Shown here: piece after piece, positions 1 to 14,987 of the stretch | Numbering within the stretch: the stretch's first letter is position 1 | Layout: the number at the start of each line of letters is the position of its first letter | NCBI GenBank assembly: GCA_016839805.1 | Contig: JAEOTO010000042.1 | Location: 1-15,041 of the forward strand | DNA from: Candidatus Hermodarchaeota archaeon | GTDB lineage: Archaea > Asgardarchaeota > Hermodarchaeia > Hermodarchaeales > Hermodarchaeaceae | Direction of reading: 5' to 3' | Length of the DNA stretch: 15,041 bases | Notes under the pieces: model-generated | What the model was told of the DNA's origin: nothing | Databases searched by the model: none | Seen by the model: the letters and a program-made list of their open reading frames with translations, nothing else | Position numbers and translations under genes: made by a program

Positions 1-302
1 CCTGCGGCGAGGAGATCGGCAAACATGGCGAGCCGGTTGCGGTCCCGGCAGGTCATTTGACAGACGGCTTCTAGACCTGCTATTTCTTGTATCATGTAGG
101 AGGGGGCGAGTGAGTTCATGTAGGCGAAACTTTGGGGGATATCGGTGACATTTGCTGCAGCGACATGTCCGACGAGTTTCTTTGCCCCTTCGATGACTTC
201 TTCCATATTCCCGATTTTTTCGGGTTCTAATTCGCCGGTATAGACGAATTTCCCGGCATGAATTTCTTCCATGAGTTTGCTGTGTGCTTCACGTTTTGCC
301 AT
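1..302 (-). CDS. metF: Methylenetetrahydrofolate reductase, MetVF-type large subunit (5' part only; runs off the window edge)
   Basis: Not in the ORF track; translated by hand from ATG at 302: MAKREAHSKLMEEIHAGKFVYTGELEPEKIGNMEEVIEGAKKLVGHVAAANVTDIPQSFAYMNSLAPSYMIQEIAGLEAVCQMTCRDRNRLAMFADLLAA... It has the MTHFR motifs T-x-E-x-x-P, NVTD and Q-x-TCRDRNR. It starts 15 nt after the metV stop, with AGGTG upstream. Confidence 0.93.
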   Translation of the reverse strand, partial: MAKREAHSKLMEEIHAGKFVYTGELEPEKIGNMEEVIEGAKKLVGHVAAANVTDIPQSFAYMNSLAPSYMIQEIAGLEAVCQMTCRDRNRLAMFADLLAA

Positions 303-317
303 TTGTCACACCTTTTC

Positions 318-980
318 CTAGATTTCTAGTTTTCGTGGTGACTGGGCGACGCGCCAATCACGAGGTTCACGATATTTTCGGAATAAGTCAAGACGACCCA
401 GCTTCTTTAATCGTTCATAGATGAGATACCAGGCACAGTCGTTCTTGTAATCGCCAACTTCGCATTTACCGTCAAGCATACCGCCACAAGGACCATTGAC
501 TAAAGCTTTGGGACAGCGGGTCATAGGGCAGATGCCACCAGTCTCGTTGAGTAAACAATCACCGCAACCACTGCAATATTCGAAGAAGTGGCCTAGCTCC
601 CTGTCTTTTCCCCCCATCCCAAAGGTGTCAACCGCTGTAAACACTTTCATCTCTGGAAAAACGTCAATGAGCGTTTGGGGACCAACTCCACAAGCGAGGG
701 ACACCATAGCGTCTACTCCCTCAATTTGAGGTCGAAGCGTTGTGGCTACAAGCTGCCGATCACATTGCCGTAAGACAATAGTGTGGCGCACTTCACCTGG
801 TTCCCCCTTCAATTTGCGGTGCATCCGTATCAACGTGGCTAGCGTTTCCGCTTGTTTTTCTCCACCCACCATGTAGATTCCTGAGCATCCATCACATCCC
901 ACGATGAGGATGTTTTCGACGCCTTCAATGGTTTCTAAGATTTTTTCGACGGGCATTTGTTTTGGAATAATCACTATCAA
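318..980 (-). CDS. metV: MetV, Fe-S/Zn-binding partner subunit of methylene-THF reductase (MTHFR C-terminal domain family)
   Basis: Motifs GCDGC, RQCD, LACGVG and the Cys-rich C-terminus CSGCGDCLLNETGGICPMTRCPKALVNGPCGG..GKCEV....DCAWYLIYERL. Lies directly upstream of metF. The start may be GTG at 974 (GGTGA 6 nt upstream) rather than TTG at 980. Confidence 0.92.
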   Translation of the reverse strand: MIVIIPKQMPVEKILETIEGVENILIVGCDGCSGIYMVGGEKQAETLATLIRMHRKLKGEPGEVRHTIVLRQCDRQLVATTLRPQIEGVDAMVSLACGVGPQTLIDVFPEMKVFTAVDTFGMGGKDRELGHFFEYCSGCGDCLLNETGGICPMTRCPKALVNGPCGGMLDGKCEVGDYKNDCAWYLIYERLKKLGRLDLFRKYREPRDWRVAQSPRKLEI

Positions 981-1037
981 TCACCGATTATGCTGGAGTA
1001 TGCTCTAGACAAGTGAAAATACCGTATGGGGTTTGGG

Positions 1038-1043
1038 TATATA
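1038..1043 (-). promoter_or_regulatory. Candidate TATA box for metVF
   Basis: TATATA about 58 nt upstream of the metV start, preceded on the minus strand by a purine-rich stretch (GAAAGAGGATAAG). Confidence 0.4.
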
Positions 1044-1076
1044 CGACTTATCCTCTTTCGGAAATCGATGAGGCCT

Positions 1077-1085
1077 AAAAAAGAG
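1077..1085 (-). terminator. Candidate archaeal oligo-T terminator after the response regulator
   Basis: The minus strand reads TAA-CTC-TTTTTT directly after the stop codon. Confidence 0.4.
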
Positions 1086-1451
1086 TTACTGGTTGACCAA
1101 TACTTCACTAATCGTTTCAAGCAAGTGAGCAAAGCGAACAGGTTTAATGAGAAATGAAATAGCCCCCGCCTTCAAGGCTTGGTCTCGGGCGGTTTCATCT
1201 GCACTCAAAAATATGATCTTGCTGGCTGGATCCATTTGTCTAATCTCTTTGGTGGTTGAGACTCCATCCTTAATTGGCATCCGGTAATCCATCAAGAGAA
1301 TGTCTGGTCGAGGGTTCAATTTACCAAAAATCTTCACAGCCTCAGATCCATCAAAGGCACTTGCTATCACATCAATTCCTTTCATAGTAAAGAATGAACG
1401 ATAAACTCGGTGAAGATTTTCGTCATCATCAACAATAAATATTGAGACCAT
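1086..1451 (-). CDS. Stand-alone (CheY-like) response regulator receiver protein
   Basis: IVDDD acidic pocket, DILLMDYRMP phospho-acceptor Asp, IIFLSA and FLIKP; no output domain. The ATG at 1451 overlaps the kinase stop (TGATG), so it is preferred over TTG at 1454. Confidence 0.93.
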   Translation of the reverse strand: MVSIFIVDDDENLHRVYRSFFTMKGIDVIASAFDGSEAVKIFGKLNPRPDILLMDYRMPIKDGVSTTKEIRQMDPASKIIFLSADETARDQALKAGAISFLIKPVRFAHLLETISEVLVNQ

Positions 1452-2959
1452 CAATCTTCACCTCTGGGCAAGAGAAATACAAAGTTCGCTCCTTGTGTGT
1501 AGTCCCCTTCTACTCGGTCTTGAACCCAAATTTGACCGCCATACCGTTGGATAATCCGTTGGACTAATGTGAGCCCAACCCCTGAACCCCGTTCACCTTC
1601 TAAATTTTCCTTGTAACGTGAAAAAATGTGTTTCTTCTCCGAGTTCGGGACGCCTGGTCCTTGATCCATAATCTGGATTTCTAGAAATACGCCATTTTTT
1701 GCTGTATTGGCTTGGACCTCAACTTTAACAAATTCGTTGGGATCCATTTTCATAGAGGTATGAAGCAGATTGAAGAAGAGCTCGGTAATGAAGCCGTCTC
1801 CACTAATTTGATACTTTCCATCCTCGATATTAGTCGTTAGGAATAACTGTTTATTAGGAAACGCTCGTTCTACTGCTCGAACTGCGGCATGAAAGGGTGG
1901 AGCAAGGTCTCTTGATCCTAATAGACGGGGTTCGATTTCCAGACTTTGGAAACGTTTGACATTCGCGATTAGATCGGCGCTGCGTTCTACTTGGGCAAGT
2001 GTGTCTCTGACACTTTCTCTTAGATGCGGAGGAAGTTGCTCATCGTTTTCAATGAGTTCCAGGGCTAGCATGATACCTTGGTTGATGTTGTTTAAATCGT
2101 GCGCCATGAGATCAAGGAGGAATTCACTCCGATGGTGTGCCGCCAAGAGAGCAATTTCAGCCTCTTTTCGTTTTGTGATATCCTCCAAGTTCCCCTCGTA
2201 ACAATGGACTTCGCCCTTTTCATTTCGAATTGCACGGGCATTAAGTTCAACCCAAATGGTCTGTCCATCACGTCGACGAAACTGTACTTCGAATCCCCGA
2301 ACAATTTCTTCATGTTCAATGAGGGCTTTCCAACGTTTTCGTGCTGTAGCGTCCACATAAAATTCGGAAGCGTTTCGCTTAATCAACTCTTCTTTGTCCT
2401 CGTAGCCTAACATTGCGACTAAGGCGGGGTTTATTTCGAGGATTTGTCCTTCTGGGGTCGTGCGGTATAACCCAACAGGTACACTATCGAAAAGATTCTG
2501 ATACTGTGTCTCTGATTCTTTCAATGCTTGTTGAACTTTTTTCCATTCAGTAATTTCAATGCCAATACCAAAAATTTCCTCGACTTTCCCCATTTCATCA
2601 GTAACGAATGTGTTGTTCCATTGCATAAGCCGTTTTTCGCCAGTCTTCGTTATCCAGTGGAATTGAGGTGAATAGGTGGGTAATTTGCCCTTAAGAAGGC
2701 GTTGGAAACGCTCTAAGACTCCTGCTCGTTCGTCCTCTGGTATGAGTAGTGGAAAAATGGTCTTTCCGAACACTTCTTTCTCAGAATACCCTGTGACTTC
2801 CTCACAGCGTTTGTTGAATAATGTTATTTGACCCTGTGTGTTCATTCCAACTACTAAAGCTCCCGCTGCTTCAATGATCCGTCCAAATCGACTTCGGCGA
2901 ATACGTGATGTCTCATTTGTTGAGTCATTGGAATGGTTACTAGGAGGTTGCATTGGCAT
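1451..2959 (-). CDS. Cytoplasmic PAS-PAS sensor histidine kinase (kinase 1; degenerate N-box)
   Basis: Two PAS/PAC units (FNKRCEEVTGYS...GIGIEITEWK; INPALVAMLGY...GNLEDITKRK), H-box MAHDLNN, G1 DQGPGVP, G2 GSGVGL. The N-box reads NLLHTSMK. No transmembrane segment is evident. Confidence 0.93.
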   Translation of the reverse strand: MPMQPPSNHSNDSTNETSRIRRSRFGRIIEAAGALVVGMNTQGQITLFNKRCEEVTGYSEKEVFGKTIFPLLIPEDERAGVLERFQRLLKGKLPTYSPQFHWITKTGEKRLMQWNNTFVTDEMGKVEEIFGIGIEITEWKKVQQALKESETQYQNLFDSVPVGLYRTTPEGQILEINPALVAMLGYEDKEELIKRNASEFYVDATARKRWKALIEHEEIVRGFEVQFRRRDGQTIWVELNARAIRNEKGEVHCYEGNLEDITKRKEAEIALLAAHHRSEFLLDLMAHDLNNINQGIMLALELIENDEQLPPHLRESVRDTLAQVERSADLIANVKRFQSLEIEPRLLGSRDLAPPFHAAVRAVERAFPNKQLFLTTNIEDGKYQISGDGFITELFFNLLHTSMKMDPNEFVKVEVQANTAKNGVFLEIQIMDQGPGVPNSEKKHIFSRYKENLEGERGSGVGLTLVQRIIQRYGGQIWVQDRVEGDYTQGANFVFLLPRGED

Positions 2960-3052
2960 TATTCCTCATTTGTCAGAGAATCAGATACAAGCCATGAACT
3001 GGAATAGTTCAGACTCCTGATTCTTTTCATACCCCTAAATCAAGAAGCCCAA

Positions 3053-3091
3053 TTGGTTGCATTAAATCTTTTCATTGCATATCGCAACCAA
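3053..3091. repeat. 8-bp inverted repeat with 23-nt spacer
   Basis: TTGGTTGC (3053-3060) and GCAACCAA (3084-3091) are exact reverse complements and bracket the 13-mer element. Confidence 0.6.
3060..3072 (-). promoter_or_regulatory. BRE/TATA-like element upstream of kinase 1
   Basis: The minus strand reads AAAAGATTTAATG, about 101 nt upstream of the ATG at 2959. An identical 13-mer occurs at 4722-4734. Confidence 0.6.
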
Positions 3092-3146
3092 ACAGTTCAT
3101 TGTAGAATATACAATGATACTTGTTCAGGTCAGGGGTTGGTGATAA

Positions 3147-4616
3147 TTACTCCTTCAAAGGAATAAGAATCATAAAATTTGCACCTTGTGTATGATCCCC
3201 TTCAACTCTATCAGCGATCGAAATTGTCCCACCATATCGGTGAAGAATTTGGTTAACGAGGGTTAATCCGATACCTGAGCCTTTCACACCTGTTCGACGG
3301 GAAGCTAATCGCGAAAAAATCCGTTCCTTTTCCTCATCCGGGATGCCTGGACCATGATCCATAATCTGGATTCGTAAAGAATGCTTGTCACGTATTTTAT
3401 TGGCTCGGACATCAATTGTTACCCGATCGGAGCGATCATACTTTGCAGCATTGTGGAGAATATTAAAGAACAACTCTGAAAGAAACCCATCTGCAAGAAC
3501 CTGATATTGGCCCTTTCGAATGTTGCTTGTCACAAATAGTTGCTTAGCTGGATGTGCCCGTTCAGCAGCCCATATTGCAGATTGAAGAGGAGCAAAGGGA
3601 TCAACAAGTTTAAGCTGAAGAGGTTCGACATCAATTCGTTGAAATCGTTTTACACTATCAATGAGGTATGCACTTCTTTCTACTTGCGCAATGGCATCCT
3701 TGAGTCTCCCTGCTAATTGTTCCGGGAAGCCAGGATCATGGAGAAGAATCTCTAATGCTGATAAGATTCCTTGATTGATATTATTCAAGTCGTGAGCCAT
3801 GAGATCTACAAGAAATTCCGCCAGATTACGTGCTCGTTGCATATCATCAGTTGCTTGTTTGCGTCCAGTAATATCACGAACAACACCATGAATCGCGATT
3901 AATTTTTCATCATCATCGTGAATCAATCTACTCTGCTGTTCGGTCCAAAGTACTGAACCATCTTTTTTGACCCAACGTAACTCACTTGGAGCAGTAAAAG
4001 CAGCGGGATCAGCTAGCATACTCTGTAACGTTGATAGATCATCAGGATGTATAATCTTAATAACAAAATCAGGATTGGCATAGAACTCTTCTGCAGCATA
4101 GCCTGTCATTCGAGTTGTGGCTGGACTCACATATTCAAATTTCCTCTTAGGATGCAATGAGAACAGATAAATTGAATCCAGTGCGTTTTCGGCGAGCAAG
4201 CGGAAAAGCGCTTCACTTTCACGGAGTTTATTTTCTGCCATTTTCTGTTCAGTAATGTCAAGCCCAATTCCGAAAATCTCAATTACTGTGCCCCTTTCAT
4301 CATAAATCAGGGTATTTCGCCATTGTGTTACAAGTTGGTTCCCATCTTTTGTTATCCATCTGGCTTCAGATGAATCCGAAGACACCTCTCCTGCAACTAA
4401 GCGGTTAAACCTTTTACGTACTGCAGCCCGATCTTGTTTCGAAATCAGTGAAGTAAAGACCGATTTCCCGAAAACTTCGTCTTGCGTGTAACCAGTCACT
4501 TGCTCACATTTTCGATTGAAAAAGGTAATTTTTCCGCGGGCATTCATCCCTATTATTAACACTTCTGCAGCTTCAGCCAAATTCTGGAATCTGTGTTGTA
4601 ATGTTGGTTCCGGCAT
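3147..4616 (-). CDS. Cytoplasmic PAS-PAS sensor histidine kinase (kinase 2; canonical motifs)
   Basis: PAS1 FNRKCEQVTGYT...GLDITEQK; PAS2 YVSPATTRMTGY...IHPDD...RDITGRK; H-box MAHDLNN; N-box NILHNAAKY; G1 DHGPGIP; F-box RIFSR; G2 GSGIGL. Confidence 0.95.
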   Translation of the reverse strand: MPEPTLQHRFQNLAEAAEVLIIGMNARGKITFFNRKCEQVTGYTQDEVFGKSVFTSLISKQDRAAVRKRFNRLVAGEVSSDSSEARWITKDGNQLVTQWRNTLIYDERGTVIEIFGIGLDITEQKMAENKLRESEALFRLLAENALDSIYLFSLHPKRKFEYVSPATTRMTGYAAEEFYANPDFVIKIIHPDDLSTLQSMLADPAAFTAPSELRWVKKDGSVLWTEQQSRLIHDDDEKLIAIHGVVRDITGRKQATDDMQRARNLAEFLVDLMAHDLNNINQGILSALEILLHDPGFPEQLAGRLKDAIAQVERSAYLIDSVKRFQRIDVEPLQLKLVDPFAPLQSAIWAAERAHPAKQLFVTSNIRKGQYQVLADGFLSELFFNILHNAAKYDRSDRVTIDVRANKIRDKHSLRIQIMDHGPGIPDEEKERIFSRLASRRTGVKGSGIGLTLVNQILHRYGGTISIADRVEGDHTQGANFMILIPLKE

Positions 4617-4721
4617 TTCGAATATATCCCCGTTTATCTTCGTAAAATGGGAATGTTACGTTCGCCCTGACTTGAATTCCCCACAAAGTACAGGTGTTAG
4701 TAGACTAATGCGACTAAAGGT

Positions 4722-4734
4722 CATTAAATCTTTT
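4722..4734 (-). promoter_or_regulatory. BRE/TATA-like element upstream of kinase 2
   Basis: The minus strand reads AAAAGATTTAATG, about 106 nt upstream of the ATG at 4616; identical to 3060-3072. Confidence 0.6.
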
Positions 4735-4766
4735 GAGTCACTGGCAATCATTTCGATGCGCGTCAA

Positions 4767-5588
4767 TTAATCTTCATCTTTAATCAGTGACCTGATCAAA
4801 TACTCTATAGCAAATCGTCCTTCAGTGTTCGGAAGATACCAGGGTTCAGGAAATCCTAACTTGGTTTTTATCTCCTGAATCGTCTTTCCCTCGTTACTTA
4901 GTTCCTTGACTTGAATTTTAAGTTCTGATAGGAACTTAATACGTGTTTCAATATGTTCTCGGGGATTTGGAATTGGTCCCCAGTGCCCATCGAAAAGGAT
5001 AGTGGGCTTCAAATCCTGGATTTCCTTCATTCTCGAAATCATTTTTGGAATGTTTTCCTCAGGCATCGCCATTTTCTTCTCTGAAGGCAGGGGAACTGCG
5101 TCGGCAGAAAACAACCATTTTTCTTCTGGTTCCCAGAATCCAATCATCTCTGCACAATGCCCCGAGAAATCCAATACTTCAAAGGTGAAGTCTTTCACTT
5201 GAATTGTTGAAGTGGTTAATTCACGTGCTTCTAGAACAGGTTCGGGGGTTCCCCAAACCCACTCAAAGAACTCGGGTAATGGATAGGGTTTATGAAGAGT
5301 CTCTAGCGTTATTGGTCCTGCGAAAATTTTGGCTTTCGGGAGAAACGCCGCACATCCCCCATAATGATCCTCATGATTATGGGTTACAAACACACGATGG
5401 ATCGGATGCTTCGTGGCATACTCACGCAACTCCCCGATTGCGTTCGCACACCCAGCATCAAATAAAGTATCCTCTAAATGGTAGGCATATACCCATACCA
5501 TGGCTTGGTCGCCCAACGGTGCCGCTGTCTTAATACAATTAATTATGTCATCAAAGGGAACTACTTCTAACATACCTAGTCCACCCAT
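4767..5588 (-). CDS. Metallo-beta-lactamase-fold metallo-hydrolase, substrate unknown
   Basis: LFDAG, THNHEDH (HxHxDH), GHC, FSAD and DGHWG metal-ligand motifs. Alternative start ATG at 5573. Confidence 0.9.
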   Translation of the reverse strand: MGGLGMLEVVPFDDIINCIKTAAPLGDQAMVWVYAYHLEDTLFDAGCANAIGELREYATKHPIHRVFVTHNHEDHYGGCAAFLPKAKIFAGPITLETLHKPYPLPEFFEWVWGTPEPVLEARELTTSTIQVKDFTFEVLDFSGHCAEMIGFWEPEEKWLFSADAVPLPSEKKMAMPEENIPKMISRMKEIQDLKPTILFDGHWGPIPNPREHIETRIKFLSELKIQVKELSNEGKTIQEIKTKLGFPEPWYLPNTEGRFAIEYLIRSLIKDED

Positions 5589-5686
5589 TCCCTAAACCTT
5601 CTTTCCTTAAATCGTCAACCCTCTGATAACTATCTTCAAATTACTTTCTTGTTTGTTCGATGCAACCCATTTGTACAGACGCCATG

Positions 5687-5693
5687 TATATAT
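5687..5693 (+). promoter_or_regulatory. Candidate TATA box for the hdrA-mvh operon
   Basis: TATATAT about 50 nt upstream of the ATG at 5743, in the divergent intergenic region. Confidence 0.4.
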
Positions 5694-5742
5694 GCACCTT
5701 CATCCACCGATTGCCCATCCTTCTCACACTTGGTGCTTGACG

Positions 5743-8094
5743 ATGAAAATCGGCGTTTTCCTTTGTACCTGCGGTGATACGATCAAAGGCACTCTCGACT
5801 ATGAAGAACTTGTCACCTTTACCGAAACATTACCAAACGTGAAATACGTCGAAATTCGCGATGACTGGTGCCAACATGAATCCCTCAACGCTCTCATTGA
5901 GACACTATCTAAAAAGAAACTCGAACGCCTAGTCATTGCTGCATGTAGTCCTCATCTGTTTGGTCAACGCTTTTATGAAGCCGCAGAAAAGGCAGGCATC
6001 ACACGCGGCTTAATGACTTTCGCCAATATCCGTGAACACTGTGCTTGGGTTCACAGGGAAAACCCCAAAGGGGCAACAGCAAAAGCCAAACGGCTCATTC
6101 GTGCCGCTGTCTTCCAAGTTGCGGCGCAAAGCCCCATTGCGACAAAAACCTTCCCGGTCACCCAGGAAGTACTTGTACTCGGGGCTGGAGTCGCTGGTAT
6201 TCAAGCAAGTCTCGATCTCGCAGATCGTGGCATCAAGGTTCATCTCGTTGAAAGAGAACCCACCATTGGCGGTCACATGGCGGTACTCAATAAGACGTAC
6301 CCGACGTTAGATTGCAGCATTTGTATTCTTGGTCCAAAGATGGCAGAGGCAGCCACTCATCCCAACATCCTACTTCATCCGTATACGGAGTTACTGGCAG
6401 CTGAGCATACAGGTAAGGATTGGCTGTTAACGCTTAACAAAAAGGCAACCTATGTGGATTGGGATAAGTGCACAGGATGTATGCAGTGCACAGAGAAGTG
6501 TCCTACCCGTGTGGATGACGATTGGTCGTGGGGTATTGCGAAGCGTCGGGCAATCTATATGCCCTTTTCGCAGAGTGTACCGCGCAAGGTCACAATTGAT
6601 GCTGAACACTGTAAGAAGCTCACAAACGACAAATGCGGTGTCTGTGAAAAGGTCTGTCCCGCTGAAGCGATTGATTATGAGATGAAAGATGAAGTAGTCA
6701 AAGTTCAAGTCGGGAGTGTTATCCTTGCCACCGGTTTCACAGAATTTGACCCCTCCGTAGTCCCGGAATTACACTACGTAGAGAATCCGGATGTCATCAC
6801 ACAAATGCAGTTTATCCGCATGATGGACTCAGTTGGACCTTTTGGTGGTAAATTAGAAGTACCATCGGATGGACGGAAACCCGAAAAGATAGTCATGATC
6901 CAATGTGTGGGGAGTCGAGATGAAAGGTATAGCTGGCAATGTTCAGCGTATTGCTGTATGGCGGCTATCAAACATGCAGAACTTGCCAAACTAGAATATG
7001 ATCCCACTCTTGACATCACCATTGTTGCCCGAGATATCCGTGCTGGTGGAAAGGGGTTTGATGAGTTTTATGTTCGGGCCCGTGAGGAGTACGATATTCA
7101 CTTTGAATATCGAGGTGATGATCTTGAAGTCGTACAAAATGATGGAAAGACAGTGGTAAATTACACGGATCCCTACGGTAAAGCCCATTCACTTCCAGCT
7201 GATATCGTCGTCCTTTCGTGTGCGATGAATCCGTCTCCTGGAACCGAAAAGCTGGCAACAATGTTGGGCGTTCCACTAGGAGAGCTTGGATTTTACGAAG
7301 CTCAGGATGAAAAGGTGGCATTAGCACGCACTGATGTTAATGGAGTGTTCCTTGCTGGCACCTGCCATGGCCCCAAAGATATCCCTGAATCTGTTGAACA
7401 AGCTGGAGCGGCAGCGGAAGAATCTTCTGTGTGGCTTTCAACCCAATCACTTTCCAAGGAGCTTGATGTTGCTGTCGTCAACAAAGATTTGTGCAATGCC
7501 TGTGGGCTGTGTGTCCCGGCTTGTCCTTCACAAGCGATAACGTTTGAAGAATCAGGTGACTGTGTGATAGTAGATGAGGTGCGTTGTCAAGCCTGTGGCG
7601 AATGCATGGCAACTTGTCCCGTCGATGCAATTGGACCATTAAACATCAATCCTACAGTATTAGACGCTGCAATTGATGGGCTACTCAACAATAGTATCGA
7701 AGGTCCTGAATCCGTGATTGTGGGCTTTGCTTGTAATGAATGTATGTACCGGGCTATCGACGAAGCTGGTGAAGAACGGCTACAATATCCTGCAGACTTA
7801 CACCTTCTCCAAGTTCCCTGTACGGGGAGTGTATCGACACCGAAAATCCTCAGAACCTTAGAAGCGGGAGCGGATGGAGTCATTCTATTCGCGTGTGCAT
7901 CAGATTTGTGTCACTATGGTCGCGGAGCGCGAATGGCGAATAGTCGTGTTCAAGTCGTTCGGAATATCATCAACCAATCGGGAGGAAATCCCGCTATCGT
8001 CCAAGTTGTACAGATGATTGGTCGTGAAGCGAAAGAATTCGCTGCTACTGTGCAGAAAACCGTGGATGCTATCAAGGGGAGGAATGGAGGTTAG
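5743..8094 (+). CDS. hdrA: Heterodisulfide reductase subunit A-like flavoprotein with C-terminal fused MvhD-like [2Fe-2S] domain (783 aa)
   Basis: Start reassigned to ATG 5743 (MKIGVFLCTCG; GGTG upstream). Motifs: AACSP, NIREHCAWVH, GAGVAG Rossmann, KTYPTLDCSICIL, inserted ferredoxin (CTGCMQCTEKCP; C...CGVCEKVCP), QCVGSRD...CSAYCCMAAIK, AGTCHGPKDI, and two C-terminal CxxCxxCxxxCP. From about 7714 an MvhD-like domain follows: FACNECMY...VPCTG...GADGV...AC....CHY. Confidence 0.93.
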   Translation: MKIGVFLCTCGDTIKGTLDYEELVTFTETLPNVKYVEIRDDWCQHESLNALIETLSKKKLERLVIAACSPHLFGQRFYEAAEKAGITRGLMTFANIREHCAWVHRENPKGATAKAKRLIRAAVFQVAAQSPIATKTFPVTQEVLVLGAGVAGIQASLDLADRGIKVHLVEREPTIGGHMAVLNKTYPTLDCSICILGPKMAEAATHPNILLHPYTELLAAEHTGKDWLLTLNKKATYVDWDKCTGCMQCTEKCPTRVDDDWSWGIAKRRAIYMPFSQSVPRKVTIDAEHCKKLTNDKCGVCEKVCPAEAIDYEMKDEVVKVQVGSVILATGFTEFDPSVVPELHYVENPDVITQMQFIRMMDSVGPFGGKLEVPSDGRKPEKIVMIQCVGSRDERYSWQCSAYCCMAAIKHAELAKLEYDPTLDITIVARDIRAGGKGFDEFYVRAREEYDIHFEYRGDDLEVVQNDGKTVVNYTDPYGKAHSLPADIVVLSCAMNPSPGTEKLATMLGVPLGELGFYEAQDEKVALARTDVNGVFLAGTCHGPKDIPESVEQAGAAAEESSVWLSTQSLSKELDVAVVNKDLCNACGLCVPACPSQAITFEESGDCVIVDEVRCQACGECMATCPVDAIGPLNINPTVLDAAIDGLLNNSIEGPESVIVGFACNECMYRAIDEAGEERLQYPADLHLLQVPCTGSVSTPKILRTLEAGADGVILFACASDLCHYGRGARMANSRVQVVRNIINQSGGNPAIVQVVQMIGREAKEFAATVQKTVDAIKGRNGG

Positions 8095-8098
8095 AAAG

Positions 8099-10087
8099 AT
8101 GACTACCGAAGAACCACGCATCGGTGTTTTCGTCTGTAAATGTGGCACAAACATCGCGAAAGTTGTCGACGTCCCCGCTGTCTCTGAATACGCAAAGGAT
8201 TTGCCCAACGTGGCTTATGCTGGATGGCAACTGTTTACATGTTCAGAAGAAGGACAAAACATCATCAAAGACCATATCAAAAAACACAAGCTCAATCGCG
8301 TAATTGTTGCATCCTGTAGTCCAAAACTCCATGAACCCACATTCCGACGCACCGTCATGGAAGCAGGTATTAACCCCTTCTATTTCGAAATGGCTAATAT
8401 CCGCGAACAGGTATCTTGGGCACATATGAAACAAAAGGAAGAATACAATGAAGCCACACAAAAGGCTAAAGACCTTGTTCGTGCAGCAGTTTTTCGCGCC
8501 TCTCAACTGGAATCCATTGGTTCCACCACCCAAGAAGTTCCTCCCGTTTGTATGGTGATTGGGGCAGGCATTGCCGGCATCACTGCCAGCACGCTTCTTG
8601 CTGATGAAGGATATGAAGTTCACTTAGTCGAACGCAGCCCAGCCCTCGGAGGGAAAGCAGCGCAACTGGGTTTTGTGTTTATGACAGATACATGTGGCGT
8701 ATGCGTTCCACCCCGACATGGTGAAATGGCTCGCAAATGCCTTTCCAAACGTGTTCTACGGCATGATCCGAAAATTCATGTACATACATTAACTGAGGTT
8801 AAACAGTTCAGCGGCTATATCGGGAACTTTCAGGCGAAACTCCACACACAACCCCGCGGAGTGGACATTGATACGTGCACGCTCTGTGGGAAATGTATCG
8901 ACGTCTGCCCAGTGAAGGTGCCTCATGAACTCGACTTGGGATTAGGTAATCGAAGGGCCATTTATCTACCCTACCCACAGGCAGTCCCTCGATCCCCTGT
9001 TGTCGATTTTAAGCACTGCACTCGATGTGGAAAATGTGCTGAGGTGTGTCCCGTGGGTGCCATCCATCTGGATGAAGCACCCAAAGATACGGACATCACC
9101 GTGGGAACTGTCATTGTGTCTACAGGGTTTGATGTCTTCCAGCCCATAGGCCTTTATGCATACGGAGAAAACCCGAACGTTATTCTCCAATTGGCTCTAG
9201 CACGTCTATTGGACCCTCTTGGTCCCACCGATGGGCAACTCCTTCGGGTTTCCGATAAGAACCCCCCCAAACACGTGGGTATGATCCAGTGTGTCGGAAG
9301 CCGGGACCCTGAATACTATTCCCACTGCTCACGGATCTGCTGTCAAGTTGCCATTAAACATGCTGTCTACATCAAAGAACACTGGCCCGATACCGATGTC
9401 ACCATTTTCTACAAAGACATTCGGTTACAGGGCAAACAATACGAACGCTACTATCTCAAAGCTCAGCAACTAGGTGTTAATTTCCATCGAGCCGAAATAA
9501 CGGAAGTTAAAGAAACTACCAAACAAGGACTAACACTTGCCGTTGAGCATCATAATGGCGCAAAAGAAACTGTTGATGTTGATTTGCTGGTTCTTTCTGC
9601 CGCAATGACGCCCGCTGAAGGCGCAAAAGAATTAGCTCACACTCTCAATATGGAAGTTGATTTGAAAGGATTCTTCCGGGAATACCATCTCAAACTTGCT
9701 CCTGTTGACACGACAACTGATGGAATTTACCTCGCTGGTGCTTGTAGCAGTCCTCGTGATATTGCTGAAGCTTCCTTCATGGGGGCCGCTGCAGCCTCTC
9801 ATGCGGCGATTCCTATGAGCAAAGGGGAAGTCAAAGTTGACCTCGCCAAATCTATTGTCGATGAAACACTGTGTATTGGTTGTGCCAACTGCTACACCGT
9901 GTGTCCCTATAGCGCAATTAACATGGAAGGAGGCGTCGCGAAAGTAGTTGAAGTCGCCTGTAAAGGCTGTGGTATCTGTGTCGTTGAATGTCCTGCTGAA
10001 GCCATTCAACTGCGACATTATCGTGATAAACAGATTTACTCACAAATTGAAGGGCTCCTTGCCAACGTGGGGGCAGCGAAAAAATGA
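8099..10087 (+). CDS. hdrA: Second heterodisulfide reductase subunit A-like flavoprotein (662 aa)
   Basis: Start reassigned to ATG 8099 (GGAGGT at 8086-8091). Motifs: RIGVFVCKCGTNI, FTCS, ASCSPKLHEPTFR, GAGIAG, four CxxCxxCxxxCP, QCVGSRD...CSRICCQVAIK and AGACSSPRDI. Confidence 0.95.
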   Translation: MTTEEPRIGVFVCKCGTNIAKVVDVPAVSEYAKDLPNVAYAGWQLFTCSEEGQNIIKDHIKKHKLNRVIVASCSPKLHEPTFRRTVMEAGINPFYFEMANIREQVSWAHMKQKEEYNEATQKAKDLVRAAVFRASQLESIGSTTQEVPPVCMVIGAGIAGITASTLLADEGYEVHLVERSPALGGKAAQLGFVFMTDTCGVCVPPRHGEMARKCLSKRVLRHDPKIHVHTLTEVKQFSGYIGNFQAKLHTQPRGVDIDTCTLCGKCIDVCPVKVPHELDLGLGNRRAIYLPYPQAVPRSPVVDFKHCTRCGKCAEVCPVGAIHLDEAPKDTDITVGTVIVSTGFDVFQPIGLYAYGENPNVILQLALARLLDPLGPTDGQLLRVSDKNPPKHVGMIQCVGSRDPEYYSHCSRICCQVAIKHAVYIKEHWPDTDVTIFYKDIRLQGKQYERYYLKAQQLGVNFHRAEITEVKETTKQGLTLAVEHHNGAKETVDVDLLVLSAAMTPAEGAKELAHTLNMEVDLKGFFREYHLKLAPVDTTTDGIYLAGACSSPRDIAEASFMGAAAASHAAIPMSKGEVKVDLAKSIVDETLCIGCANCYTVCPYSAINMEGGVAKVVEVACKGCGICVVECPAEAIQLRHYRDKQIYSQIEGLLANVGAAKK

Positions 10088-10566
10088 GCAAAGCCAAATC
10101 TAAACCTAAACCAAAACAAGCCCTTGGAACACCCAAGGCTGCATTTGAACCTCGAATAGTTAGCTTCTGCTGTCACTATTGCTCATATGGTGCCGCAGAT
10201 CTAGCTGGTACAAGTAAAATGGCTTATCCAACGAATGTGGAAATTATCCGGGTTCCCTGTTCTGGGCGCGTCGATCCGCTCCATGTGTTACGTGCTTTCG
10301 AGGAAGGCGCCGATGGGGTAATGGTTACGGGGTGTTTGAAAGATCAATGTCACTTTGTAACGGGAAACATTCATGCCGAGAAGCGCATGCAAAAATTAGC
10401 TAAACAACTCGATGCAATCGGGCTTGGAGGACGGTTAATCTTCGAGTTAATGAGTGCCGGAATGGCCAATAAGTGGGTAGAAACCGCCTCAACATTTTAT
10501 GAACAAATTCTAGCGCTTGGACCAAATCCACTTAAACATCATAAAAAAGAGGTGAAGAGCGATTGA
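10084..10566 (+). CDS. mvhD: MvhD/FlpD [2Fe-2S] hydrogenase-Hdr adaptor subunit
   Basis: FEPRIVSFCCHYCSYGAADLAG, IIRVPCSGRVDP and GADGVMVTGCLKDQCHF. ATGA overlap with the hdrA stop. Confidence 0.96.
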   Translation: MSKAKSKPKPKQALGTPKAAFEPRIVSFCCHYCSYGAADLAGTSKMAYPTNVEIIRVPCSGRVDPLHVLRAFEEGADGVMVTGCLKDQCHFVTGNIHAEKRMQKLAKQLDAIGLGGRLIFELMSAGMANKWVETASTFYEQILALGPNPLKHHKKEVKSD

Positions 10567-11444
10567 CCGTTCGAATCGCAACGATGGGTATGGCAGGCTG
10601 TAGTGGCTGTCACATTGCCCTCCTCGATATCGGAGTGAAATTATTAGATATACTCAAAGATGTTGAATTGGTCTATTCCTATCCGTTGGTAGATACAAAA
10701 AATCCAATTCCACCGAACATCGATGTTGCACTAATTGAAGGAAGTATTCGCACTGAGCATGATAAAGAAATGGCAGAAGCCATGCGGAAACAAGCCAAGT
10801 TCGTTATTGCCTTTGGTGCTTGTTCAGCGCACGGGGGTGTAAATGGACTTGCTAATGTCTTCGGAGGCAAGCAGGGTGTCGAGTACGTGTATACTAAAAC
10901 AATCCTGATGGCTCAGAAATTAGTACCCTCTGAACACGTTCCTCAAATCCTCACCAATGATTTACGATTAAGTGACGTCGTGAAAGTGGATTTTGTCATC
11001 CCCGGGTGTCCTCCTAATCCGGATGAAATTGCTAGTATACTAACAGCATTACTATCCGGAGAAACACCCACCCTGTCATCAAAAAGTATCTGTGATGAAT
11101 GCCCTCTCGAACGCTTAACTGAAGCCCCCGCAAAATTACGAAGAATTCATGAAATCCCTGAACCAGACAAATGCTTGTTATCCCAAGGCTTTCTTTGCAT
11201 GGGACCCGCTACCCGGGCAGGCTGTAATGCCGAATGTCCACGTCGTGGCATGCCCTGTACTGGCTGCCGGGGCCCCTCTGAGACAGTTTGGGACCAGGGG
11301 GTAGCAATGCTCGATGCACTAGCTGCAATGGAAGAGGATGAAATATCAGACTTCAAATTACCACGACTCGCAGGAACCTTTGCACGCTACACCTACGCGT
11401 CATCAAAACTTGACAACCTACGGAAAGGAGTGCAAAAAGAATGA
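10563..11444 (+). CDS. mvhG: [NiFe]-hydrogenase small subunit, MvhG type
   Basis: GCSGC, EGSIR, FGACSAHGG, IPGCPP, SICDECP and CLLSQGFLCMGPATRAGCNAECP...PCTGCRGP. TTG start overlaps the mvhD stop (TTGA); GAGGTGA at 10549-10555. No Tat signal. Confidence 0.93.
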   Translation: MTVRIATMGMAGCSGCHIALLDIGVKLLDILKDVELVYSYPLVDTKNPIPPNIDVALIEGSIRTEHDKEMAEAMRKQAKFVIAFGACSAHGGVNGLANVFGGKQGVEYVYTKTILMAQKLVPSEHVPQILTNDLRLSDVVKVDFVIPGCPPNPDEIASILTALLSGETPTLSSKSICDECPLERLTEAPAKLRRIHEIPEPDKCLLSQGFLCMGPATRAGCNAECPRRGMPCTGCRGPSETVWDQGVAMLDALAAMEEDEISDFKLPRLAGTFARYTYASSKLDNLRKGVQKE

Positions 11445-12814
11445 CCCAACCCAAACACATCGAATTCGAACCCATGACTCGCCTTGAAGGGCATGCAAAA
11501 ATCAGCCTCGACGTTACAGGCGGCAAACTCAACAAATGCCACTTCCACATCATCGAATCTCCCCGCCTTTTCGAACGATTCATGGAAGGCATCCCCGCTG
11601 AAGAAGCTCCCCAACTATCTGAACGAATTTGTGGCATCTGCTCCGTCGCCCACCATCTGGGATCAGTCAAAGCCGTAGAAGATGCCTGGGGTGTTACCCC
11701 GCCCAAACAGGCTGTGAAGTTACGCCATCTTGAGAACTTCGGTGAATTCATACATAGCCATGCACTTCACCAAGTATATCTAGCACTTCCTGATTTTCTC
11801 ACTCCTGAAACCCCAAACGTCCTTGCAGTGGCTGCGAAAGACCCAACACTTGCCAAAAAGGGCATCGAACTTCGCATGTTTGGGCAAAACATCATTAAGG
11901 CAATTGGTGGACGAATGATTCATCCCTGCTCAGCCATCCCCGGGGGCATGGCTGGCCCACTTCTGGAAGAAGAACGAGATAAACTTGCTAAGCAAGCTCC
12001 AAAGGCACTCGCTACCGCTCGTCGCCTCGTCAAATTATACTTCAAACTCGCCAAACAAAATGATGTTGGTTTAGTCGGATACTATCTCAGTGAACCTACG
12101 TATTACCTCAGCTTACACAACAAAGGCATGCACGACGTCTATGATGGAACCCTTCGATTCATTACACCCGAAGGCAAAACTCTACATAATTTCAAACCCG
12201 CCAACTACGCTCAATACATCGCCGAAGATGCCATGCCATATACCACAGTGAAATACCCTTTCATCAAGGAACTCGGTCCAGACAAAGGCAACTACCGCGT
12301 CGGTCCCCTTGCGCGTCTAAATGTTGTCAAGAAAATGGCCAGTGAAGAAGCCCAAGGATTTACTAACCAACTCTTCGAATTCTTCGGTGAGAGGCCAATC
12401 CATGATCCCATCGCCTACAACCTCGCTCGCTCCATCGAACTCCTCAGCGCCGTCGAACAAGCTATACTCCTCATCGAAGACAGCAATCTCCAAGAAGACA
12501 ATTATCGCGTTCCTGTCGAACCACGAGCTGGCGAAGGCGTTGGCGTCGTCGAAGCTCCCCGCGGCACCCTCTTTCACAATTACTGGACCAACGACGACGG
12601 TATCATCAATAAAGTCAACTGCGTGATCGCCACCGGACAAAATGTCCGCACCATCGAACACGCCGTCCAAGCCAAAGCCCAAGAACTCCTCCCCGACCTC
12701 CTCAAACCCCGACCAGAAAGTCTTAATGCGCTACAACGTATCGAGCCCCTAATTAGGGCCTACGATCCGTGCATAAGTTGTTCAGTTCATATGATTGAAT
12801 TAGTTAAAGATTAA
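11441..12814 (+). CDS. mvhA: [NiFe]-hydrogenase large subunit, MvhA type (group 3c by context)
   Basis: TRLEGH, L1 RICGICSVAH, HSHALH, GGRMIHP, YRVGPLARLN, EAPRGTLFH, and L2 RAYDPCISCSVH plus a 7-residue tail. ATGA overlap with mvhG. Confidence 0.93.
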   Translation: MTQPKHIEFEPMTRLEGHAKISLDVTGGKLNKCHFHIIESPRLFERFMEGIPAEEAPQLSERICGICSVAHHLGSVKAVEDAWGVTPPKQAVKLRHLENFGEFIHSHALHQVYLALPDFLTPETPNVLAVAAKDPTLAKKGIELRMFGQNIIKAIGGRMIHPCSAIPGGMAGPLLEEERDKLAKQAPKALATARRLVKLYFKLAKQNDVGLVGYYLSEPTYYLSLHNKGMHDVYDGTLRFITPEGKTLHNFKPANYAQYIAEDAMPYTTVKYPFIKELGPDKGNYRVGPLARLNVVKKMASEEAQGFTNQLFEFFGERPIHDPIAYNLARSIELLSAVEQAILLIEDSNLQEDNYRVPVEPRAGEGVGVVEAPRGTLFHNYWTNDDGIINKVNCVIATGQNVRTIEHAVQAKAQELLPDLLKPRPESLNALQRIEPLIRAYDPCISCSVHMIELVKD

Positions 12815-13100: not shown

Positions 13101-13868
13101 CTAGATGATATCGATTTCCCGGTTTTCTCCCAGAATCGTAAAAGCCATTCCGTTTTGGGTAATGAACAAAATGGGTGAAATATTCGTATGTCCAATTCGC
13201 CGTGCCTTGATGGGGATGATGCTTTCATAAGTTTCTTCGGGTTTTAATTGATAATTGCGGAGAAAAACGGTTTGACGGAGTACCAATGTGCGGGTTAATC
13301 CATCTAGCTCAAAGAGTTGAGGGACGGCATTAACGATAGCGGTTAATTTGACAGGATGTTTGCTACTGTTATGCATGAAATATTTCACATTCAGAGCATC
13401 GCCACGAAATACGGTATCCTTCGCAGGTAAAAGATCCGTGGTGAAAGTGATTCTTGGAGGTTCCATCACCTTTTCGGTATCGCACCATACGCAACCGGCA
13501 ATGAGCTGATCAATGGTAGGTTCAAAATCAGAAAAAGGGCCTTCCAGGCTATTCCACGAGTGAAGGCGTTCACCATAGAGTTCGATGAAAGCGGTCTTCA
13601 CAAGTGCCATAAGATTCGTCAAATCGGCTGGGCGCTCATCGGGAGTAGCAAAAATCGCGACAAAATCGCTGGGTCTTTCAGTGAGTCCATCAACAAGAAC
13701 TTCGGATCCCTCAAATTTTGCTTGTCGGAAATCGCCAGTGGCAAATTCCTTGGATGACACTCGAAACGCTGTTAGGAGTCCTGAGAGCATATGGGGATCC
13801 ACTTGGTCGGTATACTGGCGTGAAAATGCGTAAGCCCCATTGAGAATGATGAAGATGGCCTTTATCAT
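13101..13868 (-). CDS. Longin-like domain protein with C-terminal Ig-like beta-sandwich (255 aa)
   Basis: Probable start ATG 13868 (GGAGA upstream). The N-terminal ~123 aa pattern MIKAIFII..G...FSRQY....D..MLSGLLTAF....KE ... L..VK..F...Y...L..W......F..F...ID.LI resembles longin-fold proteins. The C-terminal ~120 aa has alternating beta-strand patterns (LNVKYFMHN, LKPEETYESIIPIKA..IG..NISP). Confidence 0.7.
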   Translation of the reverse strand: MIKAIFIILNGAYAFSRQYTDQVDPHMLSGLLTAFRVSSKEFATGDFRQAKFEGSEVLVDGLTERPSDFVAIFATPDERPADLTNLMALVKTAFIELYGERLHSWNSLEGPFSDFEPTIDQLIAGCVWCDTEKVMEPPRITFTTDLLPAKDTVFRGDALNVKYFMHNSSKHPVKLTAIVNAVPQLFELDGLTRTLVLRQTVFLRNYQLKPEETYESIIPIKARRIGHTNISPILFITQNGMAFTILGENREIDII

Positions 13869-14153
13869 CCTGGTTGATCTCCAAATTGGGTGTCGAAGTT
13901 GTTGTGCCCATATAGGATGTTCTAGTACATGGTGGGTGAATTTTCTGCCTTTCTCTTTTCCCAACCATTAGGAATAAGAATTTCGTCTAAAAGGAGATAC
14001 CTTGATTTCCATTGGAATATTCGTAAATATCGGCAAGAGGTGATGTTAATTTTGGGCAAAAGGCTTGAGTCTAGTTTTGTCAAGGCTTGATAAAAAAACC
14101 CATTCATTTTTAAATTCGCCTAAAAGATTGACTGTTAAAAGAGGTGGTTCATA

Positions 14154-14630
14154 ATGCCTGAAGAAGATAAATTTTCATTAGAAAAATGGCATAAAAAACA
14201 AGCTGTGGACCTTTTTAACGCCACTTGGACATATTTAGACAAGGAAAAGCGGACCAAAGAAGAAGACGATGCAATGGTCAACGCTTCTCACGCGTCACGT
14301 TATCATTGGGGGGTCCGGGTTGAGAACAACTGGGACGCCACACCTATCAACTTAGGACGCGGGGACTGGCAACTCTCACGTGTCTATGCTGTCCTTGGAG
14401 ACGGTGAACGGGCCGTCCATTATGGGAATAACTACCTAGATATCTGTAAAAAAGAAGGTATCAAAGACTGGGATCTAGCCTATGCTTACGAGGCCATTGC
14501 TCGTGGATACGCAGCTGCCGGCGATGAGAAAAATAAGTCTAAATTCCTAGAACTCGCGAAGAAGGCTACCAAGGACGTCAAAGACAAAGAATCACGTGAT
14601 ATGCTGGAAGCTGATTTTAAGACAATCTAA
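14154..14630 (+). CDS. Conserved hypothetical alpha-helical (TPR-like) protein
   Basis: RBS GAGGTGG at 14141-14147. Motifs AVDLFNATW..LDK..RT.EEDD.M...SHASRYHW, RGDWQLSRVYAVLG and AYAYEAIARGY resemble, from memory, a widespread uncharacterised prokaryotic family. Confidence 0.8.
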   Translation: MPEEDKFSLEKWHKKQAVDLFNATWTYLDKEKRTKEEDDAMVNASHASRYHWGVRVENNWDATPINLGRGDWQLSRVYAVLGDGERAVHYGNNYLDICKKEGIKDWDLAYAYEAIARGYAAAGDEKNKSKFLELAKKATKDVKDKESRDMLEADFKTI

Positions 14631-14659
14631 GCTTTCTGTGTCATAAAATTTCATTAGGA

Positions 14660-14694
14660 CGGGGATTTTTATGTCCCCGCTTCTCCTTCTTTTT
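14660..14694 (+). terminator. Hairpin plus pyrimidine tract, terminator-like
   Basis: CGGGGA (14660-14665) pairs with TCCCCG (14674-14679) around an 8-nt loop, followed by CTTCTCCTTCTTTTT; about 30 nt after the stop at 14630. Confidence 0.55.
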
Positions 14695-14726
14695 AATAAT
14701 AAATAATCACCAAGAGGTCTTTCGGA

Positions 14727-14987
14727 GTGACCCAAGAACCTTCATCCAAACCCAAACGTGAGGAATCCCAGTCCGCCCTCGCAGTGGAGATGATCCTCAG
14801 TGATGCCAATCGCCCCATGACAACTTTTGAGGTGACTCGGATATTCCATGAAATCGGTTGCCCCGATTCACCCAGCCGACTACTCAATCAGCTTCGGCTT
14901 GAAGGCAAAATTCATGGCAAACTCAGCATAAAACGTAAAACCTGGTTGTGGTGGGCTCCGACAGTACCTGAACCCACTGACGTATAG
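14727..14987 (+). CDS. Small putative winged-helix protein with CPD motif
   Basis: GTG start with AGAGGT upstream. The pattern ILSDANRPMTTFEV...CPDSPSRLLNQLRLEGKIHG......TWLWW fits helix-turn-helix plus a beta-wing. Confidence 0.65.
   Translation: MTQEPSSKPKREESQSALAVEMILSDANRPMTTFEVTRIFHEIGCPDSPSRLLNQLRLEGKIHGKLSIKRKTWLWWAPTVPEPTDV

Follow-up and report, generated by a model that had tools for sequence, protein, structure and literature searches.

The stretch of DNA analysed here, referred to below as the window, is a contig of 15,041 nt from a Candidatus Hermodarchaeota archaeon. It carries two sets of genes on opposite strands: a five-gene operon, hdrA1::mvhD-hdrA2-mvhD-mvhG-mvhA, which encodes a [NiFe] hydrogenase together with two HdrA flavoproteins, and the gene pair metV-metF. 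Judged by its sequence, this gene set is best read as a hybrid of two known systems, Mvh-Hdr and Hdr-type MetFV, in which MetVF would stand in HdrBC's place. The window makes up the entire contig C34 of a metagenome-assembled genome (MAG) of 2.31 Mb, which consists of 50 contigs and is 86.7% complete. Homologues of the HdrA1 fusion protein at 78–89% identity carry the names Promethearchaeota, Hermodarchaeota, Hodarchaeota or Thorarchaeota, and the closest metV loci belong to Hermodarchaeota MAGs (including Ca. Hermodarchaeum yapensis). The archaeal host proposed in the preliminary description of this DNA is thus an Asgard, Hermodarchaeota-like one.

The window genes were assigned with Pfam. 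The operon begins with hdrA1::mvhD (5743..8094, + strand; open reading frame, ORF, from 5653), a full HdrA gene fused to a region for an MvhD/FlpD-like [2Fe-2S] domain. Its start is likely ATG 5743 (giving 783 aa) rather than TTG 5653. The stop codon (TAG, 8092–8094) is followed, after a gap of 4 nt, by the ATG of hdrA2 at 8099, with GGAGG upstream; hdrA2 (8099..10087, +) encodes a full HdrA without an MvhD fusion. Next come mvhD, encoding a free [2Fe-2S] connector (10084..10566, +; PF02662, E = 1.5e-45), mvhG for the hydrogenase small subunit (10563..11444, +; PF01058, with NCBIfam VhuG at E = 5e-82, under the curated cut-off), and mvhA for a group 3c-like large subunit (11441..12814, +). The three remaining junctions are 4 nt overlaps (ATGA, TTGA and ATGA). 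This tight coupling had been reported in the preliminary description and was found again on re-reading the sequence, as were the bounds of the operon: a divergent gene on the left and, closing it on the right, a convergent ORF (13101..13964, −).

The second gene set lies about 4.8 kb away on the opposite strand, a distance and orientation that agree with those given earlier. It consists of metV (318..980, −; PF12225, E = 1.8e-33), which encodes the Cys-rich Fe-S/Zn subunit of MetVF, and the N-terminal 100 codons of metF (3..302, −; MTHFR family, PF02219, 25.6 bits), a gene truncated where the contig stops. At its left end (1–127) the window is identical to G000:C12:27028-27154, another contig of the same genome. 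Since an exact end overlap of 127 bp is typical of a k-mer assembly break, C12 and C34 can be joined. The overlap leads into the remainder of metF (C12:26406-27122; MTHFR), and metV-metF is a two-gene unit. Many of the MetV cysteines are invariant in 12 orthologues, and MetV and MetF are 50–59% identical to their counterparts in Bathyarchaeia, Syntrophoarchaeum and ANME-1/Methanophagales (ANME, anaerobic methanotrophic archaea). Our search for solved structures found none for MetV and only distant ones for MetF.

The two HdrA proteins share 36% identity, and each is 41–43% identical to a further HdrA encoded on contig C46 of the same genome. HdrA1 comprises an N-terminal domain, a TrxR/FAD domain, an inserted and a C-terminal ferredoxin domain and, finally, the MvhD-like [2Fe-2S] domain; residues 2–648 align to 5ODC_A (E = 9e-153) and residues 656–779 to MvhD chains. 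Its best NCBIfam model, hetero_SS_HdrA2, covers the whole length at 744 bits, against a cut-off of 1100 bits. HdrA2 aligns full-length to 8RVU_a (E = 2.5e-182). The canonical cysteines are all kept in both proteins (N-terminal domain, CxxC plus Cys197, the TrxR-domain cluster and both ferredoxin domains), and the cluster cysteines of the fused MvhD domain of HdrA1 are kept too. A complementary loss, in which one of the tandem HdrAs lacks the N-terminal domain and the other Cys197, is ruled out: both features are present in both HdrAs. HdrA1 and HdrA2 form separate clades, each with 100/100 support and each with Asgard, Bathyarchaeia and Thermoprotei members. As both clades span three phyla, the tandem is old and co-inherited, as expected of a heteromer, and fits an obligate one. 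A feature peculiar to HdrA2 lies at window positions 8690–8740 (residues ~199–216): directly after CxxC/Cys197, the orthologues from all three phyla carry an insertion of 11–13 aa with an invariant extra Cys (C214), which is present neither in HdrA1 nor in canonical HdrAs.

The free MvhD shows the pattern CxxC...PC...Cx4CH and shares 48% identity with its counterpart in the canonical C46 cluster. In the MvhD tree, the fused domain of HdrA1 forms a separate, long-branched clade apart from all free MvhDs, and the rest is not resolved; an assignment of the MvhD modules by tree was ruled out for this lack of resolution. The genome encodes three [NiFe] large subunits. In that of the window, the metal-site motifs RICGIC and DPCISCSVH are intact, and among solved structures MvhA 5ODC_F is its best match (E = 2.9e-112).

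Neither hdrB nor hdrC belongs to this operon, as noted in the preliminary description; the same is true of every relative seen. The window contains no CCG-domain (HdrB) gene. We extended the check past the left edge through the adjoining 27-kb contig C12, and found no hdrBC in the 20 kb inspected; beyond metF lie convergent, unrelated genes (PhoU-like, a gene of unknown function, Na/sulfate symporter, phosphorylase, phosphoglycerate mutase and CofD). Genome-wide, there are three CCG-domain proteins: a true HdrB accompanied by HdrC (C46), a TfrB-like protein whose neighbour is a TfrA-like flavoprotein (C22), and an HdrD-like protein (C15). The outcome of this genome-wide check is mixed. An hdrCB pair does exist, which weakens the case for a replacement of HdrBC, but it is the only such pair and lies within an hdrA-mvhDGA cluster of its own. 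The genome encodes four HdrAs: two in the window, one on C46 and an HdrA::MvhD fusion on C50. With a single HdrBC pair for four HdrAs, placed beside its own HdrA and hydrogenase, the C46 HdrBC would be an unlikely dedicated partner of the window operon.

Both of the other Hdr loci have features of their own. At C46:46978-56037 (G000; L009:8979-18041) the order is hdrC-hdrB-ferredoxin-2-oxoacid:ferredoxin oxidoreductase (three subunits)-hdrA-mvhD-mvhG-mvhA; the presence of a 2-oxoacid oxidoreductase inside an Hdr/Mvh operon is unusual. At C50:80489-84551 (G000; L027:14490-18551) the HdrA::MvhD gene (820 aa) is followed by one for a 494-aa polyferredoxin, near an FwdB-like gene, a CooC-like ATPase and CdhC.

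The linkage between metVF and the hdrA1-hdrA2-mvhDGA operon was compared across relatives of decreasing HdrA1 identity. At 78–81% identity the entire neighbourhood is the same, which shows kinship only. At 74%, metV-metF is inverted, the kinase and regulator genes that separate the two gene sets in the window are gone, and a beta-lactamase-fold gene alone stands between metVF and hdrA1. At 65% the locus has no beta-lactamase-fold gene, and at 58% and 53% metV-metF is directly divergent from hdrA1::mvhD-hdrA2-mvhD-mvhG(-mvhA), amid unrelated flanks (the contig of L018 stops inside mvhA). The same seven-gene divergent layout is found in Bathyarchaeia (L044, L050, L061) and in Thermoprotei/Desulfurococcales (L054, L060, L065), with gaps of ~110–130 bp; over the relatives at 53–74% HdrA1 identity, Bathyarchaeia and Thermoprotei, the distance from metVF to the operon is about 110–270 bp. 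Among the complete HdrA1/HdrA2 loci, which come from three phyla, metVF is linked in 11/11 and hdrBC lies within 10 kb in 0/11.

A scan with a MetV alignment (one genome per species, mapped by tblastn) gave 42 archaeal loci. Counting those with at least 4 kb on both sides, HdrA is encoded in the flank of 22 of 24 metV loci, MvhA in 9 and HdrB in 3. The same MetVF clade, together with HdrA and MvhD, also occurs without a hydrogenase (Bathyarchaeia, Altiarchaeota), with hdrCB (Sif- and Borrarchaeota) and with FrhB-like subunits (Syntrophoarchaeum, Methanophagales). Recurrence in three phyla amid different flanking genes makes the association more than chance: conservation of the linkage, which the preliminary description had singled out as a test, outlasts inversion, insertion and total change of flanks across Asgard, Bathyarchaeia and Thermoprotei. 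The metVF/operon linkage is well supported, and the conserved gene set is real. Given that metVF and the operon are directly divergent in other lineages, the 4.8-kb spacer of the window (beta-lactamase-fold gene, kinases and regulator) is a Hermod-lineage insertion into an older divergent pair. One locus of a different kind, L020 (JGI 3300033156 contig, 10001-16003; 43% identical), has the order mvhG-mvhA-hdrA::mvhD-hdrA::mvhD-frhB and no metVF; the tandem-HdrA/hydrogenase module has apparently also been combined with an F420-binding subunit.

We propose, with confidence a little better than even, that the operon acts with MetVF, instead of HdrBC, as a hydrogen-linked methylene/methyl-pterin oxidoreductase whose C1 carrier is likely tetrahydromethanopterin (H4MPT). 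The five genes would provide (i) a soluble Mvh-type [NiFe] hydrogenase, MvhAG, (ii) the MvhD connector, and (iii) an asymmetric HdrA core built from two old paralogues; MetVF would then take HdrBC's place as the partner of this MvhAGD-HdrA1/HdrA2 module. Electrons would pass from H2 to MvhA, MvhG and MvhD, through the Fe-S chain and FAD of HdrA1/HdrA2 to MetV, and on to the MetF flavin and the methylene-C1 carrier; the same path may possibly be run in reverse. The presence of two MvhD modules per HdrA1/HdrA2 pair suggests a pair of docking arms, of which one would bind MvhAG and the other perhaps MetV. That the proteins form a single complex, and with it the docking partner of each MvhD module, the pterin used, the direction in which electrons flow and any co-reduction of ferredoxin, is what we infer from the genes. 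A complex prediction for MetV, MetF and the C-terminal ferredoxin/MvhD part of HdrA1 (12-row alignments) returned 'no answer', with scores of 0.00 and 0.00, and is used neither for nor against binding.

Several points weigh against this proposal. Firstly, gene neighbourhood does not equal binding; the window metVF is not co-transcribed with the operon, lying 4.8 kb off behind four unrelated genes, and a few Bathyarchaeia metVF loci (L043, L059) have no HdrA nearby. Secondly, the MvhD tree does not reveal which MvhD module serves MetVF. Thirdly, Mer is encoded in all 15 genomes of the genus, and MetVF is therefore not needed to close the pathway there. Fourthly, the flavin-site residue Glu356 is absent from both window HdrAs, with Ile in its place in HdrA1 and Ala in HdrA2. 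Lastly, an HdrB homologue is encoded elsewhere in this genome and in 4/5 non-Asgard genomes with the same cluster, such that partnership with, or sharing of, HdrBC in trans is possible. The earlier suggestion that MetVF replaces HdrBC as the acceptor module accordingly keeps its basis in conserved linkage and the lack of hdrBC in cis; it is weakened by the loss of Glu356 and by the hdrCB pair elsewhere, and its folate branch falls away, as described below.

The last of these points leads to a rival explanation, in which the operon encodes an ordinary bifurcating hydrogenase/Hdr core that borrows HdrBC (C46), or the HdrD- or TfrB-like CCG protein, in trans, reducing an unknown disulfide and making reduced ferredoxin. 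MetVF would be a separate, ferredoxin-dependent enzyme, nearby through its use of that ferredoxin or through common regulation. Candidates for such borrowing are at hand: this genome has the hdrCB pair, the HdrD-like protein and the TfrAB-like pair, and four of the five other cluster-bearing genomes have their HdrB homologues. The inserted ferredoxin domain is kept in both HdrAs, and purified acetogen MetVF takes reduced ferredoxin in vitro and is not retained on Hdr proteins (PMC9430772). However, the sole hdrCB pair forms part of a cluster with an hdrA-mvhDGA set of its own, the complete loci of three phyla link metVF every time and hdrBC never, and hydrogenase-free archaeal clusters (classes B to D) still couple metVF to hdrA and mvhD. 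We regard this explanation as unlikely, though deserving of some weight.

With respect to the C1 carrier of the proposed MetVF-linked system, the preliminary description had placed it in a folate-type Wood-Ljungdahl methyl branch, and this part of the claim is not supported. Searches of this genome and of all 15 genomes of the genus found neither formyltetrahydrofolate synthetase (FTHFS, Fhs) nor FolD. Genes for FwdA, FwdB, FwdC, Ftr, Mch, Mtd and CdhC are present in this genome, and its Mer is a true one, scoring 413 bits where the cut-off is 349. With H4MPT-type enzymes present and Fhs and FolD not found, gene content makes methylene-H4MPT the likelier substrate, rather than methylene-tetrahydrofolate (methylene-THF). 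Chadwick et al. (PMC9012536) likewise argued for an H4MPT-bound C1 substrate for this MetF clade. MetV was found in 13/15 genomes of the genus; in these archaea, MetVF would work alongside the F420-dependent Mer and draw its electrons from another source. In L060, L044 and L021, fwd, mch, mtd or ftr genes are neighbours of the cluster. In the non-Asgard genomes with the cluster, FolD was found in 0/5, and Mer was not found in the three Thermoprotei-type ones. Proximity of metVF to mer was also seen: mer adjoins metVF in L043, L051 and L061, and in two other Asgard families (G022:C1:19111-21918 and G021:C1:294581-298560) metV lies 1–3 kb from a true mer.

These data bear on a second rival, namely that MetVF is an anabolic methylene-THF reductase supplying methyl-THF for methionine from serine/glycine C1 units, with a position that is mechanistically meaningless. 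The family of MetF (PF02219) is in keeping with this, as is its best NCBIfam match, which falls below the cut-off and is to the MTHFR part of a bacterial fusion with homocysteine methyltransferase; the catabolic step, moreover, is already covered by Mer. We nevertheless consider it very unlikely, given the conservation of the HdrA linkage over five archaeal lineages, the presence, in several lineages, of fwd, mch, mtd, ftr or mer next to the cluster, the failure to find FolD and Fhs in the genus, and the three cluster-bearing genomes in which no Mer was found.

The proposed H2-linked oxidoreductase may or may not couple its reaction to ferredoxin. Glu356 and Lys409 are the signature of bifurcating HdrA flavins (Kremp et al., PMC9430772). 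Lys409 is universal in the HdrAs compared. At position 356, all HdrA2 proteins have Ala; HdrA1 has Ile in the Hermod genomes, Ala in Bathyarchaeia and Glu in Thermoprotei. The C46 and C50 HdrAs of the same genome have Glu356. Because this residue is lost, the Hermod complex may, by the Glu356 criterion, be non-bifurcating, and we judge ferredoxin-coupled bifurcation in the Hermod version to be a tenable but clearly minority prospect. The midpoint potentials are −414 mV for H+/H2 (1 bar), ~−320 mV for methylene/methyl-H4MPT and ~−450 to −500 mV for ferredoxin. H4MPT as the acceptor thus leaves little energy for ferredoxin co-reduction from H2, which fits the loss of Glu356; a simple H2:methylene-H4MPT oxidoreductase becomes plausible, as does the reverse reaction when sediment H2 pressure is low. 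The midpoint potential of methylene/methyl-THF is −200 mV (PMC9430772).

The distribution of Glu356 offers a side observation. HdrA1 keeps it in L054, L060 and L065 (Thermoprotei-type, no Mer found) and has lost it in L044, L050 and the Hermod genomes, all with Mer; it is lost also in L061, where a Mer-like gene lies beside the cluster. This is a hint, from three lineages only, that retention of Glu356 in HdrA1 tracks the absence of Mer.

A third rival has the same complex run mainly in reverse: methyl-H4MPT would be oxidised, possibly together with reduced ferredoxin (confurcation), and H2 released, as organic matter or hydrocarbons are oxidised syntrophically by a reversed Wood-Ljungdahl pathway. 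Its anatomy is that of the H2-linked oxidoreductase proposed above and, judged by the midpoint potentials, H2 formation becomes feasible at low sediment H2 pressures. Hermodarchaeota are predicted degraders of hydrocarbons and organic matter with a Wood-Ljungdahl pathway (PMC8163825). The group 3c hydrogenases of methanogens, though, are characterised as H2-oxidising, and the loss of Glu356 in both HdrAs speaks against a bifurcating or confurcating flavin. We take reversal as the main direction to be rather improbable.

Comparison with known systems places the window between them. As in MvhADG-HdrABC of hydrogenotrophic methanogens (PDB 5ODC, 8RVU, 7BKB), MvhA, MvhG and MvhD are present, and the HdrAs are complete in their canonical domains and Fe-S cysteines. 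Unlike that complex, the operon has no HdrB or HdrC and metVF is the conserved neighbour; instead of a homodimeric HdrA there are two dissimilar paralogues, one of which carries a second, fused MvhD module; and Glu356 is replaced in both. No MCR_alpha match (mcrA) was found in the genome as assembled, at 86.7% completeness, and so the heterodisulfide of coenzymes M and B (CoM-S-S-CoB) is not an expected substrate here, a further difference.

The Hdr-type (type IV) MetFV-HdrCBA-MvhD system of Moorella thermoacetica and Sporomusa ovata is similar in that, in the portion of Mock 2014 available to us, MetF and MetV are tied genetically to HdrA and MvhD, and a methylene-pterin is conceived as the high-potential acceptor of an HdrA flavoprotein. 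In Sporomusa ovata, MetV, MetF, MvhD and HdrA pull each other down (PMC9430772). The bacterial clusters have hdrCB and no hydrogenase, whereas the window has a hydrogenase and no hdrCB. The bacterial HdrA lacks the inserted ferredoxin domain and has extra TrxR/GltD parts (PMC9430772), whereas the window HdrAs are canonical in domain order; and the bacterial enzymes serve a folate pathway, the branch genes of which were not found here. Finally, metFV and hdrA/mvhD are linked in the window, as in the bacteria, but do not form one transcription unit.

Closer in sequence are the Ca. Syntrophoarchaeum/ANME-1-type clusters (Chadwick et al. 2022, PMC9012536), which have MetF and MetV of the same clade (52–56% identity). 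For these, archaeal MetF was proposed to act on H4MPT-bound C1 units and to pair with HdrA paralogues, and the tandem HdrAs were read as heterodimers, as they are here. Unlike the window, these clusters (L052, L057, L062, L064) lack a hydrogenase and encode an FrhB-like subunit and several split HdrAs, and the tandem HdrAs of ANME lose the N-terminal domain and Cys197 complementarily (PMC9012536), whereas the window HdrAs keep both. An HdrA-MvhD fusion like HdrA1 is found in HdrA2 of the Methanosarcina HdrA2B2C2 complex (Yan et al. 2017, as cited in PMC9430772); HdrA1, by contrast, has no HdrB2C2, and its partners are a second HdrA and a hydrogenase.

The remaining features of the window lie mostly in the spacer. 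Next to metV is the gene for a single-domain response regulator (1086..1454, −; PF00072, E = 1e-23), with which the gene for a first PAS-PAS histidine kinase (1451..2959, −; PAS, HisKA and HATPase_c) overlaps by 4 nt; a second PAS-PAS histidine kinase gene follows (3147..4616, −; PAS and HATPase_c). A role in regulating the locus in response to redox state or H2 is conceivable for the kinase/regulator pair (1086–4616), although it lacks a DNA-binding output domain. A PAS kinase and response regulator between metVF and the hdrA operon were seen in Hermod-type genomes and also in L022, a relative from Guaymas. The response regulator is present in the close relatives L013, L015, L016 and L022 and not in L017, L018 or L019; most relatives have one kinase at the locus (as in L013 and L016), and L030, L032, L033 and L068 have two. 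The divergent neighbour of hdrA1 encodes a metallo-beta-lactamase-fold protein (4767..5588, −; PF00753), for which NCBIfam matches are weak and all sub-threshold; its position is the same in Hermod-type loci and in L017. The divergent intergenic region between the two genes (5589..5742) contains, as read from the sequence, a TATATA stretch ~50 nt before ATG 5743. To the right of the operon, three ORFs (13101–14987; 287, 158 and 86 aa) have no Pfam or NCBIfam match; they are syntenic in relatives down to 74% HdrA1 identity, where radical-SAM and rubrerythrin genes come next. An Rfam scan of the window returned zero structured RNAs.

Genome papers on Asgard archaea and Bathyarchaeia report Mvh/Hdr genes whose acceptor is unknown, since no CoM-S-S-CoB is made (PMC8163825, PMC11291895, PMC7886697). 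In the Hermodarchaeota paper, hdrABC and mvhADG are listed without an answer to the heterodisulfide question, and MetF goes unmentioned (PMC8163825); a paper on soil Asgard archaea speaks of 'an unidentified heterodisulfide compound' (PMC11291895). Chadwick et al. (PMC9012536) described metFV-hdrA-mvhD clusters in Syntrophoarchaeum and placed Asgard MetF in the ANME-1-type clade; theirs was the only paper found in the open literature with both MetV and Asgard. Our full-text literature search found no description of an archaeal, hydrogenase-containing, HdrBC-less Mvh-HdrA-HdrA-MetVF cluster. A bolder and, in our estimation, unlikely possibility is that MvhAGD-HdrA1/HdrA2-MetVF is an uncharacterised complex of Asgard, Bathyarchaeia and Thermoprotei which ties the methylene/methyl-H4MPT step directly to H2 and, in sediment syntrophs, runs backwards, merging electrons from methyl-H4MPT and reduced ferredoxin into H2. 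If true, this F420-independent outlet would make a reversed Wood-Ljungdahl pathway thermodynamically workable, and the 'orphan' Mvh/Hdr genes found in archaea that lack methyl-CoM reductase would gain a role.

The conserved partnership with MetVF provides a concrete, testable acceptor for an HdrBC-less Hdr paralogue. If confirmed, the system proposed here would give the archaeal Wood-Ljungdahl pathway a new step that depends on hydrogen (or forms it) and would reveal an HdrA core able to swap HdrBC for a pterin reductase. It would also give a biochemical handle on the function of 'ANME-1-type' MetF, and would matter for models of Asgard syntrophy and eukaryote origins that are based on hydrogen.

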